NCBI GenBank assembly: GCA_963731795.1
Contig: CAVSWU010000003.1
Coordinates: 902,216 to 966,215 of the forward strand
Reading direction: 5' to 3'
DNA length: 64,000 nt
Source: an uncultured delta proteobacterium
Lineage (GTDB): Bacteria > Myxococcota > Myxococcia > Myxococcales > Myxococcaceae
A program made the position numbers and the translations under genes. Below are positions 26,682 to 38,562 of the stretch, in pieces. The notes beneath the pieces were generated by a model. The model worked only from the letters and a program-made list of their open reading frames with translations, was not told the DNA's origin and searched no databases. Position 1 is the first letter of the stretch, and each line of letters starts with the position of its first letter.

Positions 26682-27320
26682 GTGTTCTTCCGTTCCGGGT
26701 GGTTGGAGTCGCTGTTCGATCGCTTGGGGCTCACCCAGTGGGTGGGCCCGCTGCGCGCGTTCCTGCGGCGAGCTCGGGACAACGAGCCGCTGGATGGCCA
26801 ACCAGCAGTCCGCAGTGAGTCTCCGCAGTCCCCTCCCATCGAGTCCACCATGCCCACCAAGAAGCCACGAGCCCAGAGCAAGAAGACCTCTCGTTCCCAG
26901 CCCGCCAAGGCGCAGAAGCGCGCCGCGAAGCCCGCGGCTCGCAAGGCCGCCGCCAAGCGTGGCGCCACCGCGAGCAAGCGCACCGGCGCGGCGAGGACCG
27001 CCACCGCGGAAGCCGTGAAGCAGCTGGTGGACGCGCTGCAGAGCCACCCGCAGCAGAAGGACATCGTCTCGGCCGGGCAGCAGCAGAAGGACCAGCTCCT
27101 GCGCTCGCTGATCCCGCTCTACCTGGCGCGCTCGCTGGGCGTGGAGGTGACGTCCGGAACCACCTCGCGCTTCTGGAGCAAGCTGGGCGTGTCCTACGCC
27201 GCGCCCAACGCCGCCAAGGCGCTGCGCATGCACACCGGCTACGCCTCGGACTCCAAGAAGGGCAAGGCGATCACCGCCAAGGGCGTCCGGTACGTCGAGG
27301 ACGCCATCGCCCGAGGCTGA
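26682..27320 (+). CDS. Lysine/alanine-rich histone H1-like DNA-binding protein
   Basis: GGAGG RBS before a GTG start. The middle region is KKPRAQSKKTSRSQPAKAQKRAAKPAARKAAAKRG. It lies immediately upstream of hsdM. Confidence 0.5.
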   Translation: MFFRSGWLESLFDRLGLTQWVGPLRAFLRRARDNEPLDGQPAVRSESPQSPPIESTMPTKKPRAQSKKTSRSQPAKAQKRAAKPAARKAAAKRGATASKRTGAARTATAEAVKQLVDALQSHPQQKDIVSAGQQQKDQLLRSLIPLYLARSLGVEVTSGTTSRFWSKLGVSYAAPNAAKALRMHTGYASDSKKGKAITAKGVRYVEDAIARG

Positions 27321-27339
27321 GCCCGGCGCGCGGCTCTCC

Positions 27340-27376
27340 GTTGATGCCCCGCCCCCTCTCTGAGTGAGGGCGGGGC
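27340..27376 (+). terminator. GC hairpin after the H1-like gene
   Basis: ccccgccccctctctgagtgagggcgggg has a CCCCGCCC/GGGCGGGG stem. There is no U tract. Confidence 0.3.
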
Positions 27377-27463
27377 CTCGGGTGCGGCCTGGAGGAGCCG
27401 TCCGATCGTGGCACCAGGCCGGGAAATGGACGCATTGGAGCAAGCCGGTAGCTTCTCGGGCTG

Positions 27464-34437: not shown

Positions 34438-35163
34438 TCAGCGCGCGGCCGGCGGGACCGCATCCATCAGCGCCTCGATCACCTTGTCGACCTCCGCCAG
34501 AGGAAAGTCCCGCAAGGTCCCGAGGATGGTGCCCTTCTGGTTGCGAGCGGTGAGCTGGATGCGGCTGCTCTTGTCGGTGAACTTGCGCGCCAGCGAGTCA
34601 CGGTAGCGCTTGATCCGCTCCGCATCCTCCTTGGGAATGGGCATGTTGGAGGTGGGCCGGCGCAGGCGCTGCAGGGCCTTGCGCAGCTCCACCACGCTGC
34701 AGTTGGCGAAGGACTTCTCCTGGGTCGCGCCGTCCTTGTCGACCACGGTGATGGGGAAGAGGCCCGGGTCGTTCCTGTCGGCCTTCTTGCCGGTGGCCTC
34801 TTCGTAGGTGAGCAGCAGGCCCAGGCGCGAGATGCCGTACTGCACGCACACCTCCTGGCTGAACTCGCGGGCCACGGCGCCGTACGCGGCCAGGGTGGCC
34901 CGCGACAACTCCTTCAGTTCTTTGGCGAAGAAGTCGGGCGCATCCTTGTAGCCCGCATCCTCCGCCAGATTGTGGGTGACGACGTAGTTGTAGATGAGAC
35001 CAATCTGGTAGAAGTTGATCTCGCTCTGCCCCAGGATCTGGCGAATGGTGGAGGGGACTTCTTCGATCGTCATCCCCTCAAGCGAGCCGTTGAGGCGGGG
35101 ATTGAGAATGGCCTGGGTGAGGTTCGACATCGGATCTTGAGCTGCGACAACAGGCTTTTGCAT
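34438..35163 (-). CDS. Hypothetical protein embedded in the Type I R-M locus
   Basis: 241-aa ORF with real coding statistics and ~60% GC. It has no recognisable motif. It is divergent from hsdR. Confidence 0.55.
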   Translation of the reverse strand: MQKPVVAAQDPMSNLTQAILNPRLNGSLEGMTIEEVPSTIRQILGQSEINFYQIGLIYNYVVTHNLAEDAGYKDAPDFFAKELKELSRATLAAYGAVAREFSQEVCVQYGISRLGLLLTYEEATGKKADRNDPGLFPITVVDKDGATQEKSFANCSVVELRKALQRLRRPTSNMPIPKEDAERIKRYRDSLARKFTDKSSRIQLTARNQKGTILGTLRDFPLAEVDKVIEALMDAVPPAAR

Positions 35164-35319
35164 GTGAGACGTTCCTTGGTTGGAGCTGCGTGATTGCTGC
35201 GCTCCCTCCTAAAGCAGGGCCCGTGCCAACACAGAGGCCAGTGAAATGGCCCCCTTACGCGAAGGGGCTCCCCTCCCCCCATCTCACTTCGTGGACTGGA
35301 CAGTCTCATTCGGTGGACT

Positions 35320-38300
35320 ATGGGCCAGACGAACGGGTTTCCCGCGGAGCGTCTGCACATGAGTCCGAATCTCACCGAGTCGGTGGCGGAAGGAGAGGCG
35401 CTTCGCTGGTTCGAGGAGCTGGGCTACTCGGTGGTCGTCGCGCAGAAGAACGATCCCGGGGCTGACCGGGAGAGTCTGGGCGAGGTCCTCCTCGTGCCCC
35501 AGCTCCGGGCCGCCGTGGAGCGGCTGAACCCGAAGTTGCCAGAGGCGGCCCGAGACGAGGCCCTCCGGAAGCTCCGGGTGCAGGAACACCCAGCCCTGGT
35601 CCAGGAGAACCGCCGAAACCACCAGCTCCTGGTCAACGGAGTCGAGATCGAACACCTGCGAGAGGGGCACATCGCCGGTGATCGCGTCCGCCTGCTCGAC
35701 TTCGAGCACCCGGAGAACAATGACTGGCGGGTCGTCAGCCAGTTCACGGTCGTGGAGAACGGGCACAACCGCCGCCCGGATCTGACGGTCTTCGTGAACG
35801 GCCTGCCGCTCGCCGTCATCGAGCTGAAGAACGCCGCCGACGAGGAGGCCACCATCTGGACGGCCTTCCACCAACTCCAAACCTATCGGAAGGACATCCC
35901 GTCCCTGTTCCGGTTCAACGAACTCCTGATCGTCAGCGACGGGCTGGAGGCCCGCGTGGGCTCGCTGACGGCCAACCGGGAGCGGTTCGCCCCCTGGAGG
36001 ACCATCGAGGGTGAGGCGCTGGCGCCCACGACCCTCCTGGGGCTGGAAGTCCTGCTCAAGGGCGTCTTCGACAAGCGCCGGTTCCTGGACCTGGTGCGGC
36101 ACTTCATCGTCTTCGAGGAGGACGGCTCCGAGCTGGTGAAGAAGCTCGCGGGCTACCACCAGTTCCACGCGGTCCAGCGGGCCGTGGATGCGACGGTCCA
36201 GGCCTCGCGGCCGACCGGAGATCGGCGCGTGGGCGTGGTCTGGCACACGCAGGGCTCGGGCAAGAGCCTCACCATGGCCTTCTACTCCGGGAAGGTCATC
36301 CTCCACCCGAAGATGGAGAACCCGACGATCGTGGTCCTCACGGACCGGAACGATCTCGACGACCAGCTCTTCGGCACGTTCAGCCGCTGCCACGAGCTGC
36401 TCCGCCAGAAGCCTGTCCAGGCCCAGGATCGGGCGGATCTCCGGCGCAAGCTGAAGGTGGCCAGCGGGGGCGTCGTCTTCACGACCGTCCAGAAGTTCGT
36501 GCCCGAGGAGAAAGGCGATCAGTTCCCGCTGCTGTCCGACCGGCGGAACATCGTCGTGGTGGCCGACGAGGCGCACCGCAGCCAGTACGACTTCATCGAC
36601 GGGTTCGCCCGCCACCTCCGGGACGCGCTCCCGAATGCCAGCTTCATTGGCTTCACCGGCACGCCCATCGAGTCCACGGACAAGAACACCCGGGCGGTCT
36701 TCGGCGAGTACGTCAGCGTCTACGACATCCAGCGGGCCGTCGAGGACGGCGCCACGGTGCCGATCTATTACGAGGGCCGGCTCGCCAGGCTGGAGCTGAA
36801 GGAAGCGGAGCGCCCGAAGCTCGACAAGGAGTTCGAGGAAATCACCGAGGGTGAGGAGGAGGTCCGCCGGGAGCGGCTCAAGAGCAAGTGGGCCCAGCTC
36901 GAGGCCCTCGTCGGCACAGAGAAGCGGCTCCAGCTCATCGCGCGGGATCTCGTGGACCCACTTCGAGCGGCGGCTCGAGGCCATGGATGGCAAGGCCATG
37001 ATCGTCTGCATGAGCCGGCGCATCTGCGTGGAGCTGTACCGGGAGATCACCCGGCTGCGGCCCGAGTGGCACAGCGACGAGGACGACAAGGGGAGCATCA
37101 AGGTCGTCATGACGGGCTCCGCCTCGGACCAGCTCGACTGGCAGCCGCACATCCGCAGCAAGTCACGCCGGGAAGCCCTGGCGAACCGCTTCAAGGACCC
37201 GAAGGATCCGCTGAAGCTGGTCCTGGTCCGGGACATGTGGCTGACGGGTTTCGACGCGCCGTGCGGTCCACACGATGTACGTGGACAAGCCCATGAGGGG
37301 CCACGGGCTCATGCAGGCCATCGCCCGGGTGAACCGCGTCTTCAGGGACAAGCCCGGCGGGCTGGTCGTGGACTACCTGGGGCTGGCGGACCAGCTCCGA
37401 TCAGCGCTCGCCACGTACACGGATGCGGGGGGCCGGGCTCCACCGCCATCGATCAGCAGGAAGCCGTCGCGGTCATGCTGGCCCGGTTCGAGGTCTGCCA
37501 GGCCCTGTTCCATGGCCTCGACTACCAGCACGTGCTCGGGGCTCCGAAGCAGTTGCTGCACTTCTTGCCCACGGCCCAGGAGCATGTCCTCAAGCAGGAG
37601 GACGGCAAGGACCGCTTCGTCCAGGCCGTCACGGAGCTCAGCAAGGCCTTCGCCCTGGCGGTGCCCCACGAGGAAGCTCTCCGAATCCGTGATGAGGTGG
37701 CGTTCTTCCAGGCTGTGAAGGCAGCGTTGGTCAAACGGACAACCGTGGACGCCAGACCCGAGGAGGATCTCGACCATGCCATCCGGCAGATCGTCTCGAG
37801 GGCTGTGGCCGCATCCGAGGGGATCGTCGATATCTTCCAGGCTGCCGGCCTGAAGAAGCCCGACATCAGCATCCTCTCGGACGAGTTCCTCGCCGACGTC
37901 CGGGGCTTGCCGCAGAAGAATGTGGCCCTGGAGCTACTCCGAAAGCTCCTCAATGATGAGCTGAAGCGCCGCTCTCGGACGCAACCTCGTCCAGTCCCGA
38001 GCCTTCTCGGAGATGCTGGAGCGGGCGCTCCGATCGTACCGGAACCGTGCCATCGAGACGGCACAGGTCATCGAGGAGCTCATCAAGCTCGCCAGGGACA
38101 TGCGCCAGGCGCAAGCACGCGGCGAGAAGCTGGGCCTCACCGAGGACGAGCTGGCGTTCTACGAGGCGCTGGGGGTCAACGACGCGGCTGTGATGGTCAT
38201 GGGCGACAAGGTGCTCCGGGTCATCGCCAAGGAACTCACGGACACGATCCGTCAGAACGTGAGCATCGACTGGACGCAGCGAGAGACGGCCCAGGCGAAG

Positions 38301-38562
38301 CTCAGGACGATGGTGCGGCGGCTCCTCACGAAAGCACGGGTACCCACCCGACAAGCAGGAGCAGGCCACCCAGACGGTCATGGAGCAGGCGGAGCGGCTC
38401 TGCGAGACCTGGGCCGAGGATGGCGTGCTGGAGACCACAAGAGCAGTGGAGCAGCCTCTCCCCGCGACGCCCATTGAGCTTCCATTGGCTGCCGAGCCGG
38501 AGCCGACCTACAGCCCATCGAAGCCCGCCAAGGGGACGAGGCCCCGGAAGCCCCGGAAGTAG
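35320..38562 (+). CDS. hsdR: Type I restriction enzyme R subunit, with about five apparent frameshifts
   Basis: The N-terminal nuclease/helicase region is present (Walker A GSGKS at [18 protein letters not shown]-box [10 protein letters not shown]). The C-terminal helical region continues across ORFs 36851.., 37275.., 38013.. and 38380..38562. Confidence 0.8.

Follow-up and report, generated by a model that had tools for sequence, protein, structure and literature searches.

A SitA3-family toxin and immunity cassette inserted between hsdS and hsdR of a myxobacterial Type I restriction-modification operon, together with a candidate DNA-binding protein and palindromic sites

Why should the genes of a Type I restriction-modification (R-M) system be parted by those of a lipoprotein toxin and its immunity proteins? 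The question is posed by a 64,000-nucleotide stretch of DNA from an uncultured delta proteobacterium of the Myxococcaceae (assembly GCA_963731795.1, contig CAVSWU010000003.1, positions 902,216 to 966,215), referred to here as the window. Within it, hsdM (27464-29365) and hsdS (29365-30651) overlap by 1 nt with both reading frames intact, and the start codon of hsdR (ATG at 35359; MSPNLTES...) is found 4,707 nt past the hsdS stop codon, the gene ending at 38562. The gap holds a lipoprotein toxin gene, two Imm52 genes, an open reading frame (ORF) on the minus strand and three copies of a palindrome. An initial annotation, made from the letters of the DNA, had described contiguous hsdM and hsdS genes with hsdR 4.7 kb downstream, which these coordinates bear out, and an R-M operon interrupted by a polymorphic-toxin/immunity module, a description upheld by Pfam, by a match to SitA3 and by the empty hsdS-hsdR junctions of relatives. 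The overall explanation advanced here, to which a probability of about 0.8 may be attached, is that a sitAI cassette of the SitA3 family was inserted in the hsd operon along with a DNA-binding protein and its cognate sites.

The gap is a discrete insertion into an ordinary hsdM-hsdS-hsdR operon, as is evident both from its boundaries and from its absence in the nearest relatives. Homologous loci and contigs fetched for comparison are labeled L001-L172. In Archangium gephyra PVMSAZ (L082), strain JPH2 (L086) and Corallococcus macrosporus (L087), hsdR directly follows hsdS across a junction of the form ...TGAnCATG... (CTGAnCATGAGCCCG), so that the synteny comparison proposed in the initial annotation identifies the gap as an insertion. 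The HsdM protein of the window is 79-88% identical to its closest relatives, which belong to the Myxococcaceae, the hsdM and hsdR DNA is 87-88% identical to that of L082, and the conserved 3' end of hsdS aligns with L082, L085, L086 and L087. In the window, the 33-bp hsdS-stop/hsdR-start junction is present twice, at 30642-30674 and 35347-35379 on the plus strand, with 27 of 33 bases identical, a duplication that exceeds shuffled controls. The left copy keeps the hsdS TGA and has GAG in place of the hsdR ATG, and the right copy has TGC in place of the hsdS stop and keeps the ATG at 35359. Positions 30580-30688 align to L082 13218-13326 and positions 35347-38562 to L082 13280-16502, the same 47 bp of L082 being hit twice. 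With the duplicated junction at both ends, the insert is delimited as 30675-35346, or 4,672 bp. Within it, DNA homology to other toxin loci is limited to 30925-33379.

Signs of mobility around the island, such as the tRNA genes for which the initial annotation advised a search, did not emerge: the 64-kb window contains no tRNA, and a scan of the ORFs between 19.5 and 45 kb detected no integrase, transposase or other recombinase, so none flanks the island. An integron cassette was rejected on similar grounds, there being neither IntI nor another recombinase among the same ORFs and the repeats being perfect palindromes rather than the imperfect attC type. Junction duplication was also considered as a general trait of cargo-bearing hsd loci and rejected, as it is clear in only two of 46 such loci (the window and L107), with a short one in L085. 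At L107 (9300-10022), a 52-nt stretch with the hsdR start codon has a second copy about 670 nt upstream. L085, a metagenome-assembled genome of the Myxococcaceae (JAFGNZ010000397), carries a different two-gene cargo between hsdS and hsdR (13287-15243), encoding a 267-aa protein and a 335-aa lipoprotein with a LAGC lipobox, neither of which matched any library searched; this cargo is flanked by a duplicated GAGCGYCTGAACAT junction, shorter than that of the window and beginning at the same base.

The toxin gene (31042-32661, plus strand) encodes 539 aa comprising a signal peptide, an escort domain of about aa 78-426 and a Tox-REase-5 domain (PF15648; aa 422-511, E 8e-16), the sole Pfam domain in the protein. 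It is preceded by a toxin-linked region (30925-31041), probably promoter and leader, in which DNA homology to L001-L003 runs from 30925-30953. The signal reads ...VLVLWGLLAG/CASG, with a lipobox LLAG/C, Cys29 as the predicted lipidated residue, Ala at +2 and no Lys at that position, which is the feature considered by the +2 rule for outer-membrane sorting of lipoproteins (as cited in eLife 2017 Supplementary file 1, PMC5562445). Gly28, Cys29, D452, A462 and K463 are invariant among 16 toxin homologs, the last three falling within the motif D452...(D/E)461-A-K463. The lipoprotein nuclease-like toxin of the initial annotation is thus substantiated by the lipobox, the Tox-REase-5 domain and the SitA3 escort domain.

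Assignment to SitA3 was made with three SitA3-homolog sequences rebuilt from the alignment of eLife 2017 Supplementary file 3, from which MXAN_1899 was recovered at its stated 543 aa. By BLASTP, the toxin is 48.5% identical to Myxococcus xanthus SitA3 MXAN_1899 over 357 aa (aa 78-426 against 89-440; E 2e-102), a similarity that ends at the start of the toxin domains and is hence confined to the escort domain. With LILAB_02580 of M. fulvus HW-1 it shares 55% identity over 453 aa (E 1e-155), and its full-length identity to the Tox-REase-5 SitA3 homologs LILAB_02580 and Q664_23910 is 55-60%. When the N-terminal 379 residues were searched against 1.84 billion representatives, 231 clusters were recovered, and the 59 full-length representatives of the escort domain matched 13 Pfam families, 11 of them toxin or nuclease domains. 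The C-termini found on this escort domain include Tox-REase-5, CdiA_C, Colicin-DNase, Ntox47, Ntox28, WHH and several HNH types, a diversity on one N-terminus which indicates that the N-terminal part is a carrier of swappable toxin modules. The same repertoire is listed for the toxin domains of SitA3 homologs (eLife 2017 PMC5562445). SitA3 has been shown experimentally to be a TraA-dependent, outer-membrane-delivered lipoprotein toxin with its immunity gene downstream (eLife 2017 PMC5562445; mBio 2021 PMC8546572), and entry into the target cell is governed by the SitA escort domain, according to the SitA literature. On sequence grounds, the protein of the window is a SitA3-family outer-membrane-exchange lipoprotein toxin, for which delivery and DNase activity are predicted from the family. 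SitA7, a non-modular DNase that had been the first guess, was dropped because the escort domain matched SitA3 and is modular.

Relatives of the toxin number 593, many without organism attribution. The named hosts are Hyalangium, Archangium, Cystobacter, Vitiosangium, Corallococcus, Pyxidicoccus and Myxococcus, all within the Myxococcaceae/Archangiaceae, with the single exception of a record titled Comamonas sp. KCTC 72670. Homologs occur several to a genome, and two further copies, 89-90% identical to the toxin, lie on what is apparently the same 4.25-Mb contig. Among phage and plasmid records, only the C-terminal nuclease domain was matched and not the full toxin: residues 405-523 are 32-35% identical to hypothetical proteins of the mycobacteriophages Sbash (gp35, NC_026589) and Che9c (gp35, NC_004683), and this domain was also matched on Streptomyces and Rhizobium plasmids.

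The cassette thus has much in common with the SitA3/SitI3 cassettes of Myxococcus, namely a lipobox cysteine without Lys at +2, a homologous escort domain some 350-400 aa long, a PF15648 terminus as in several SitA3 homologs, an immunity gene directly downstream and a family of several paralogs per genome in myxobacteria; it is also without an upstream sitB, as are many homologs outside Myxococcus. It differs in its location, the gap from hsdS to hsdR instead of the Mx-alpha prophage units, and in what accompanies it: a KorB-like gene, three palindromes and a further Imm52 gene preceded by a toxin stump.

Two genes of the Imm52 family (PF15579, E 1e-78 to 1e-80) follow the toxin gene on the plus strand and together form a 903-bp tandem unit. 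The first, sitI3a (32673-33403; E 2e-80), has a GTG start codon 11 nt past the toxin stop codon. The second, sitI3b (33575-34306; E 9e-78), comes after 19 nt left over from a toxin 3' end (33546-33564), which encode ...TPALQ and a stop codon, as recognized by direct reading and a repeat search. Being both Imm52 by Pfam and 80% identical, with their divergence clustered in residues 91-120, these are indeed the tandem immunity-like paralogs first noted at this locus. An Imm52 gene is present in the fetched locus of 77 of the 80 homologous toxin loci, and directly 3' of the toxin gene in those inspected. By this arrangement, sitI3a is presumably the cognate immunity gene of the toxin, and sitI3b looks like a typical extra, or orphan, immunity gene. 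The immunity protein of a Hyalangium locus (L002) is 85.6% identical to sitI3b and 76.8% to sitI3a. Upstream of its toxin gene, L002 also holds the first 70 or so nt of an Imm52 gene (9577-9646), and L004 and L008 have two Imm52 genes each, which suggests arrays of sitAI3 cassettes and recombination among them.

If the insertion lies within an operon, has it cost the host its restriction activity? The hsdR gene (35359-38562, plus strand; HSDR_N, SWI2_SNF2, ResIII and T1RH-like_C domains) contains five frame-breaking 1-nt indels (+A 36956, +G 37263, -G 37435, +G 37981 and +C 38329). It could be proposed that the insertion inactivated restriction, hsdR having been cut off from hsdMS and become a pseudogene, so that a solitary methyltransferase and a toxin cassette are left. 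The five indels fall within 1.4 kb and are private to the window, four orthologs (L082, L085, L086 and L087) being in frame at all of these sites, and hsdM, hsdS, the toxin gene and both immunity genes are intact. Against this, hsdR is otherwise conserved, with 88% nucleotide identity to L082 and no stops inside the correct frames, and an aspartokinase gene in the same window (8416-9737, minus strand) is interrupted by two 1-nt insertions, 36 nt from each other at around 9350-9396, which leave it as two ORFs and the correction of which restores the expected reading. As the aspartokinase gene carries like errors, the assembly contains such indels, and decay of hsdR is thus indistinguishable from assembly error; the odds that restriction was lost in this way are placed slightly short of even.

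The remainder of the insert concerns the palindromes and the minus-strand ORF. The palindrome was first described as 22 bp long and present in three copies; the number of copies holds, and its length is 24 bp. It is perfect (TCATGTCTGGACGTCCAGACATGA) and begins at 30759, 33455 and 34358, with no further copy in the 64 kb even when 3 mismatches are allowed and none in 100 shuffles. Each copy lies within a repeat of about 97 nt, the 24-bp core being perfect in all three and the flanks 72-84% identical. Read on the plus strand, unit 1 (30714-30819) consists of a 30-nt motif (30714-30743) followed by the palindrome (30759-30782), 108 nt 3' of hsdS; unit 2 (33419-33515) has its palindrome at 33455-33478, 52 nt 3' of sitI3a; and unit 3 (34322-34418; palindrome 34358-34381), which forms a long hairpin, separates sitI3b from the convergent minus-strand ORF. 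A partial fourth unit (35305-35334) consists of the 30-nt motif without the palindrome, is 87% identical to 30714-30743 and ends 12 nt before the right junction copy. The exact palindrome is absent from the 80 toxin loci and from JGI metagenome contigs, the 97-nt repeat has no blastn-short match in L001-L167, and no Rfam or other known RNA family was found at 26-39 kb or for the repeats.

The minus-strand ORF, orf241 (34438-35163; 241 aa), is convergent with sitI3b and divergent from hsdR. It has 28 relatives, all unannotated; those attributed to an organism are from Hyalangium, and L082 (Archangium) encodes two more. A single-sequence AlphaFold2 model was unusable, with a predicted local distance difference test (pLDDT) score of 43, and the model built from the alignment of relatives is confident (pLDDT 85.5). 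Neither Foldseek nor a sequence profile produced a significant match in the PDB, no Pfam family matched at E<=0.01 and there was no sequence match to solved ParB or KorB structures. On the model, the protein has a KorB/ParB-type helix-turn-helix DNA-binding fold, the fold match being moderate; the ParB N-terminal (ParB/Srx, CTP-binding) domain was not found in it, and the protein is assigned to neither the ParB nor the KorB family, having a similar DNA-binding fold only. The likeness to KorB and its OB operators, or to ParB and parS, is limited further, as orf241 has no ParA partner in addition to lacking the N-terminal CTPase domain and sequence-level similarity, and as its candidate sites are 18-24 bp long, vary between loci and are known by association only.

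This association is a recurrent one. In the 2.4 Mb of fetched DNA there are only 27 perfect palindromes whose arms reach 10 nt or more, 12 of them in the window or in related hsd loci (L081-L083). Palindromes of 18-24 bp occur 190-316 nt upstream of the orf241 homolog in five of the six other locus groups that have one: L168-L170 have three copies each of ATGCCTGAAC/GTTCAGGCAT 245-316 nt upstream, L171 and L172 two copies of the spaced CATGTCTGAC-TG-GTCAGACATG 190-227 nt upstream, L083 one palindrome at 200 nt and L082 two at 225 and 267 nt. Their half-sites are related, as seen in CATGTCTGGAC of the window, CATGTCTGAC of L171 and CATGCCTGAAC of L168. The palindromes are accordingly predicted, by association and with moderate confidence, to be binding sites of the orf241 protein. 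The divergent unknown ORF of the initial annotation therefore stands as a minus-strand gene divergent from hsdR and is reinterpreted as probably forming, with the palindromes, a DNA-binding protein/site pair. A specific tie between orf241 and R-M was rejected, as the L084, L168-170 and L171/172 homologs have no hsd genes beside them. The L171/L172 homolog lies in a neighborhood of bpMoxR, HSP70, DAGK, PhoH and GreA genes, the same one that receives the hsd operon, a few kb off, in L086/L087. Two metagenomic hsd loci, L160 (2162-9413) and L155 (14917-15030), have repeated long perfect palindromes of families of their own, such as GGGGCGACGCATGCGTCGCCCC, of which L160 has five copies, with no orf241 homolog detected at either.

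The palindromes may instead be mere terminators or RNA-stabilizing hairpins that were copied with the 903-bp immunity duplication, orf241 being an unrelated passenger. Each palindrome does follow a plus-strand gene at a distance of 52-108 nt, the tandem duplication takes in units 2 and 3, the units fold as hairpins (z -2.1 to -5.5; unit 1 -3.2, unit 3 -5.5) and the KorB-like fold match is only moderate. However, the 24-bp core has stayed perfect in three copies with flanks at 72-84% identity, there is no T-tract, and a scan of the insert for sigma-70 promoters and terminators yielded nothing above chance and did not pick the palindromes up. Coincidence is also inadequate to explain the palindromes that five of six other orf241 locus groups have at a fixed upstream distance and with related half-sites. 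An origin of the palindromes as terminators or hairpins is hence unlikely, with perhaps one chance in five.

Several observations weigh against the explanation of the locus as an inserted SitA3-family cassette with a DNA-binding protein/site pair. The hairpin folding just described offers an account of the palindromes that needs no binding protein. In the linear order of the window, the palindromes are downstream of orf241 and none is upstream, where hsdR is found. A second embedded cassette, that of L024 described below, has neither orf241 nor palindromes, so neither is needed for residence in the slot. The 33-bp duplication is unaccounted for by any recombinase. Lastly, NCBIfam gave no match for this toxin, although a SitA5_escort model exists there; as it has no SitA3 model, the family call rests on BLASTP against sequences transcribed from a supplement.

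The first of the palindromes regains its usual position if the insert is closed into a circle, in which it would lie 267 nt upstream of the orf241 start, as against 190-316 nt elsewhere; that the insert arrived as a circle is held with low confidence. This bears on a broader and doubtful proposal, that orf241-family proteins and palindrome arrays constitute an unrecognized small integrative or regulatory module of the Myxococcaceae, carrying sitAI cassettes and sometimes whole R-M systems and inserting as a circle by a break beside or inside the array. The proposal draws on the duplicated 33-bp ends of the window insert and on the 267-nt spacing, regained only upon circularization; on an L082 block of about 11 kb bracketed by two and two identical palindromes, which would form a single array of four upon joining of the ends; and on the junction duplications around cargo in L085 and L107. 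As the insert encodes no recombinase, such a module would require a host enzyme in trans or an unsuspected role for orf241. The L082 block (7271-18330) lies between two pairs of a 22-24-bp palindrome, (TCA)CTCGTAGTCGACTACGAG(TGA), and holds a pentapeptide-like ORF, a SitA5-family toxin gene, hsdM, hsdS, an hsdR with a 1-nt insertion of its own and two tandem orf241 paralogs. Its second palindrome pair, 11 kb from the first, lies just 3' of the gene for the SitA5 toxin (which matches NCBIfam SitA5_escort at E 5e-61) and of a gene that probably encodes the immunity protein. The left edge of this block is also found in L081, where a weakly Tox-REase-9-like gene lies beside hsdM.

Did the R-M genes and the toxin module travel together? 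The initial annotation suggested that phage defense and kin discrimination might have been co-mobilised, and one could hold that the two make up a single composite island, inherited and moved as a whole. The entire stretch from 26.7 to 38.6 kb is lower in GC than its flanks, the hsd lineage occupies different genomic contexts across genera, and in L082 a SitA5 toxin gene, hsdMSR and two orf241 paralogs stand together between identical palindrome pairs. The reduced GC content claimed for the whole region is correct on average (0.654 against 0.694 +/- 0.022 in the remaining window) and uneven by gene: hsdS has the island minimum of 0.575, hsdM has 0.647, the Imm52 genes and orf241 0.63-0.65, and the toxin gene, 12 points above hsdS at 0.696, is at the genome level. 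The nearest hsd relatives (87-88% nucleotide identity) are without the insert, which has its own duplicated boundaries, and no mobility genes or tRNA are found at the island edges. The window toxin has its nearest relatives in Hyalangium copies outside R-M loci (84-85%), and the cassettes of the window and L024 are not each other's closest relatives. A composite origin is thus highly improbable, and co-mobilization gives way to a separate 4.67-kb unit set into the operon.

How unusual, then, is this embedding? Almost end to end, the toxin matches the PADLOC-DB v2 model PDC-M17A (E 2.3e-194) and sitI3a matches PDC-M17B (E 2.7e-97), the two genes being adjacent. The PDC set comprises 145 untested phage defense candidates picked for their embedding in BREX, DISARM or Type I R-M operons (Payne et al., bioRxiv 10.1101/2024.01.29.577857), and PDC-M17 is cassette CAS_00085 in the supplement (bioRxiv 10.1101/2024.01.29.577857). 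The pair is the same and is here likewise embedded in a Type I R-M operon; the difference is that PDC-M17 was filed as a defense candidate, whereas it is here identified as a SitA3/SitI3 interbacterial cassette, 79 of whose 80 genomic homologs are not embedded. The remaining one, L024 of Pyxidicoccus caerfyrddinensis, is the only genomic toxin locus besides the window with the order hsdM-hsdS-toxin-Imm52-hsdR. It is compact, its HsdR ORF is intact (1,056 aa) and its toxin/Imm52 pair also matches PDC-M17. The L024 toxin is 62-69% identical to non-embedded Archangium/Cystobacter copies and 53% identical to that of the window; as the two embedded toxins are not nearest relatives, the two embeddings are taken to be independent. 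Among 49 metagenomic hsd relatives with hsdM upstream, hsdM and hsdR are spaced as expected for an intervening hsdS and nothing more in only six, and stand about 0.9 kb or more further apart than that in 37, from which the hsdS/hsdR slot appears as a common cargo site. The embedding was initially called unusual, a view that yields to the presence of the pair in PADLOC, the same order in L024 and the extra DNA in 37 of 49 relatives.

A toxic nuclease gene among the hsd genes of a Type I system recalls the prr locus, in which the order is hsdM-hsdS-prrC-hsdR and the R-M complex regulates PrrC, an ABC-ATPase anticodon nuclease of the cytoplasm. The toxin here differs in being an exported lipoprotein with its own immunity protein and with no sign of coupling to R-M, and an abortive-infection nuclease of the PrrC/RloC type was rejected given that Tox-REase-5 is its sole Pfam domain and an export signal is present. 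Also highly improbable is that the PDC-M17 pair is a genuine anti-phage module working with R-M in a PrrC-like manner, its nuclease released on infection: strong as the PDC-M17 matches are, chosen as such candidates were for embedding in defense operons, and with the same family in the hsdS/hsdR slot of two genera by independent events and a literature report of an R-M-like-cluster mutant partially resistant to SitA7, another SitA family, an anti-phage role is made unlikely by an export signal and escort domain that put the mature toxin outside the producer cytoplasm, incompatible with a PrrC-like trigger, by the 79 of 80 homologous loci outside R-M operons and by the kin-discrimination family itself, SitA3 being by experiment an outer-membrane-exchange toxin and the PDC systems candidates only.

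Genes were chosen among the many spurious ORFs of this DNA (about 69% GC) by third-position GC (GC3) and Pfam. The methyltransferase subunit HsdM has N6_Mtase (E 1.5e-106) and HsdM_N (E 1.6e-29) domains, and residues 61-93 of its N-terminal extension match a SAP domain weakly (E 6.5e-4) and short of the Pfam cut-off, PF02037 being annotated in several close homologs. The specificity subunit HsdS matches Methylase_S in two stretches; both hsd genes are on the plus strand. Directly 5' of hsdM is orf212 (26682-27320, plus strand), a Lys/Ala-rich ORF of 212 aa with a GC3 of 0.90, which has no Pfam match, no homolog in any fetched locus and only sub-threshold similarity to the helix-turn-helix region of IS630 transposase (E 1.8e-4; 21 bits against a cut-off of 100), which is the sole hint of a mobile element near the island. 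The ORF is probably outside the system, though inside the span first annotated. The genes flanking the island are ordinary, encoding NUDIX, hemerythrin, CBS, metallophosphoesterase, GFO/IDH/MocA and TPR proteins.

Taken as a SitA3-family cassette set into an hsd operon, the locus would function as follows. The toxin would carry a type II signal peptide, receive its lipid at Cys29 and be targeted to the outer membrane, from which TraAB-mediated outer-membrane exchange would pass it to neighboring cells. Its escort domain would bring it into the recipient cytoplasm, where the PD-(D/E)xK Tox-REase-5 domain would cut DNA, and the Imm52 protein SitI3a, encoded downstream, would protect carrier cells. 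The second gene, sitI3b, behind its 19-nt toxin-gene stump, may widen immunity to a related toxin allele. Orf241 would bind the three 24-bp palindromes, each just 3' of a gene (hsdS, sitI3a and sitI3b), and most likely regulates transcription across the cassette as well as its own. We infer that the insert came in where the hsdS stop meets the hsdR start, through an event that duplicated 33 bp of this junction, possibly via a circular intermediate. The toxin module would have no mechanistic coupling to restriction and would simply occupy a slot that usually holds cargo in this hsd family.

Much of this is known already, as the SitA3/SitI3 family is well studied and its embedding in defense operons is catalogued as PDC-M17. 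The additions made here are modest, namely that PDC-M17 is identified as a SitA3 cassette, that the boundaries of the insertion are fixed exactly and that orf241 is linked to the palindromes. The understanding of SitA toxins or of the Type I R-M mechanism is unchanged by these findings. They do illustrate that 'guilt by embedding' can capture genes of interbacterial competition that merely use the slot between hsdS and hsdR, and that annotation pipelines will call such genes defense. The orf241-palindrome pair may regulate or mobilize such cassettes. For the myxobacteria, the locus provides an example of sitAI spread outside Mx-alpha prophages, into an R-M operon and with an extra immunity gene, and as such bears on the diversification of social compatibility types.

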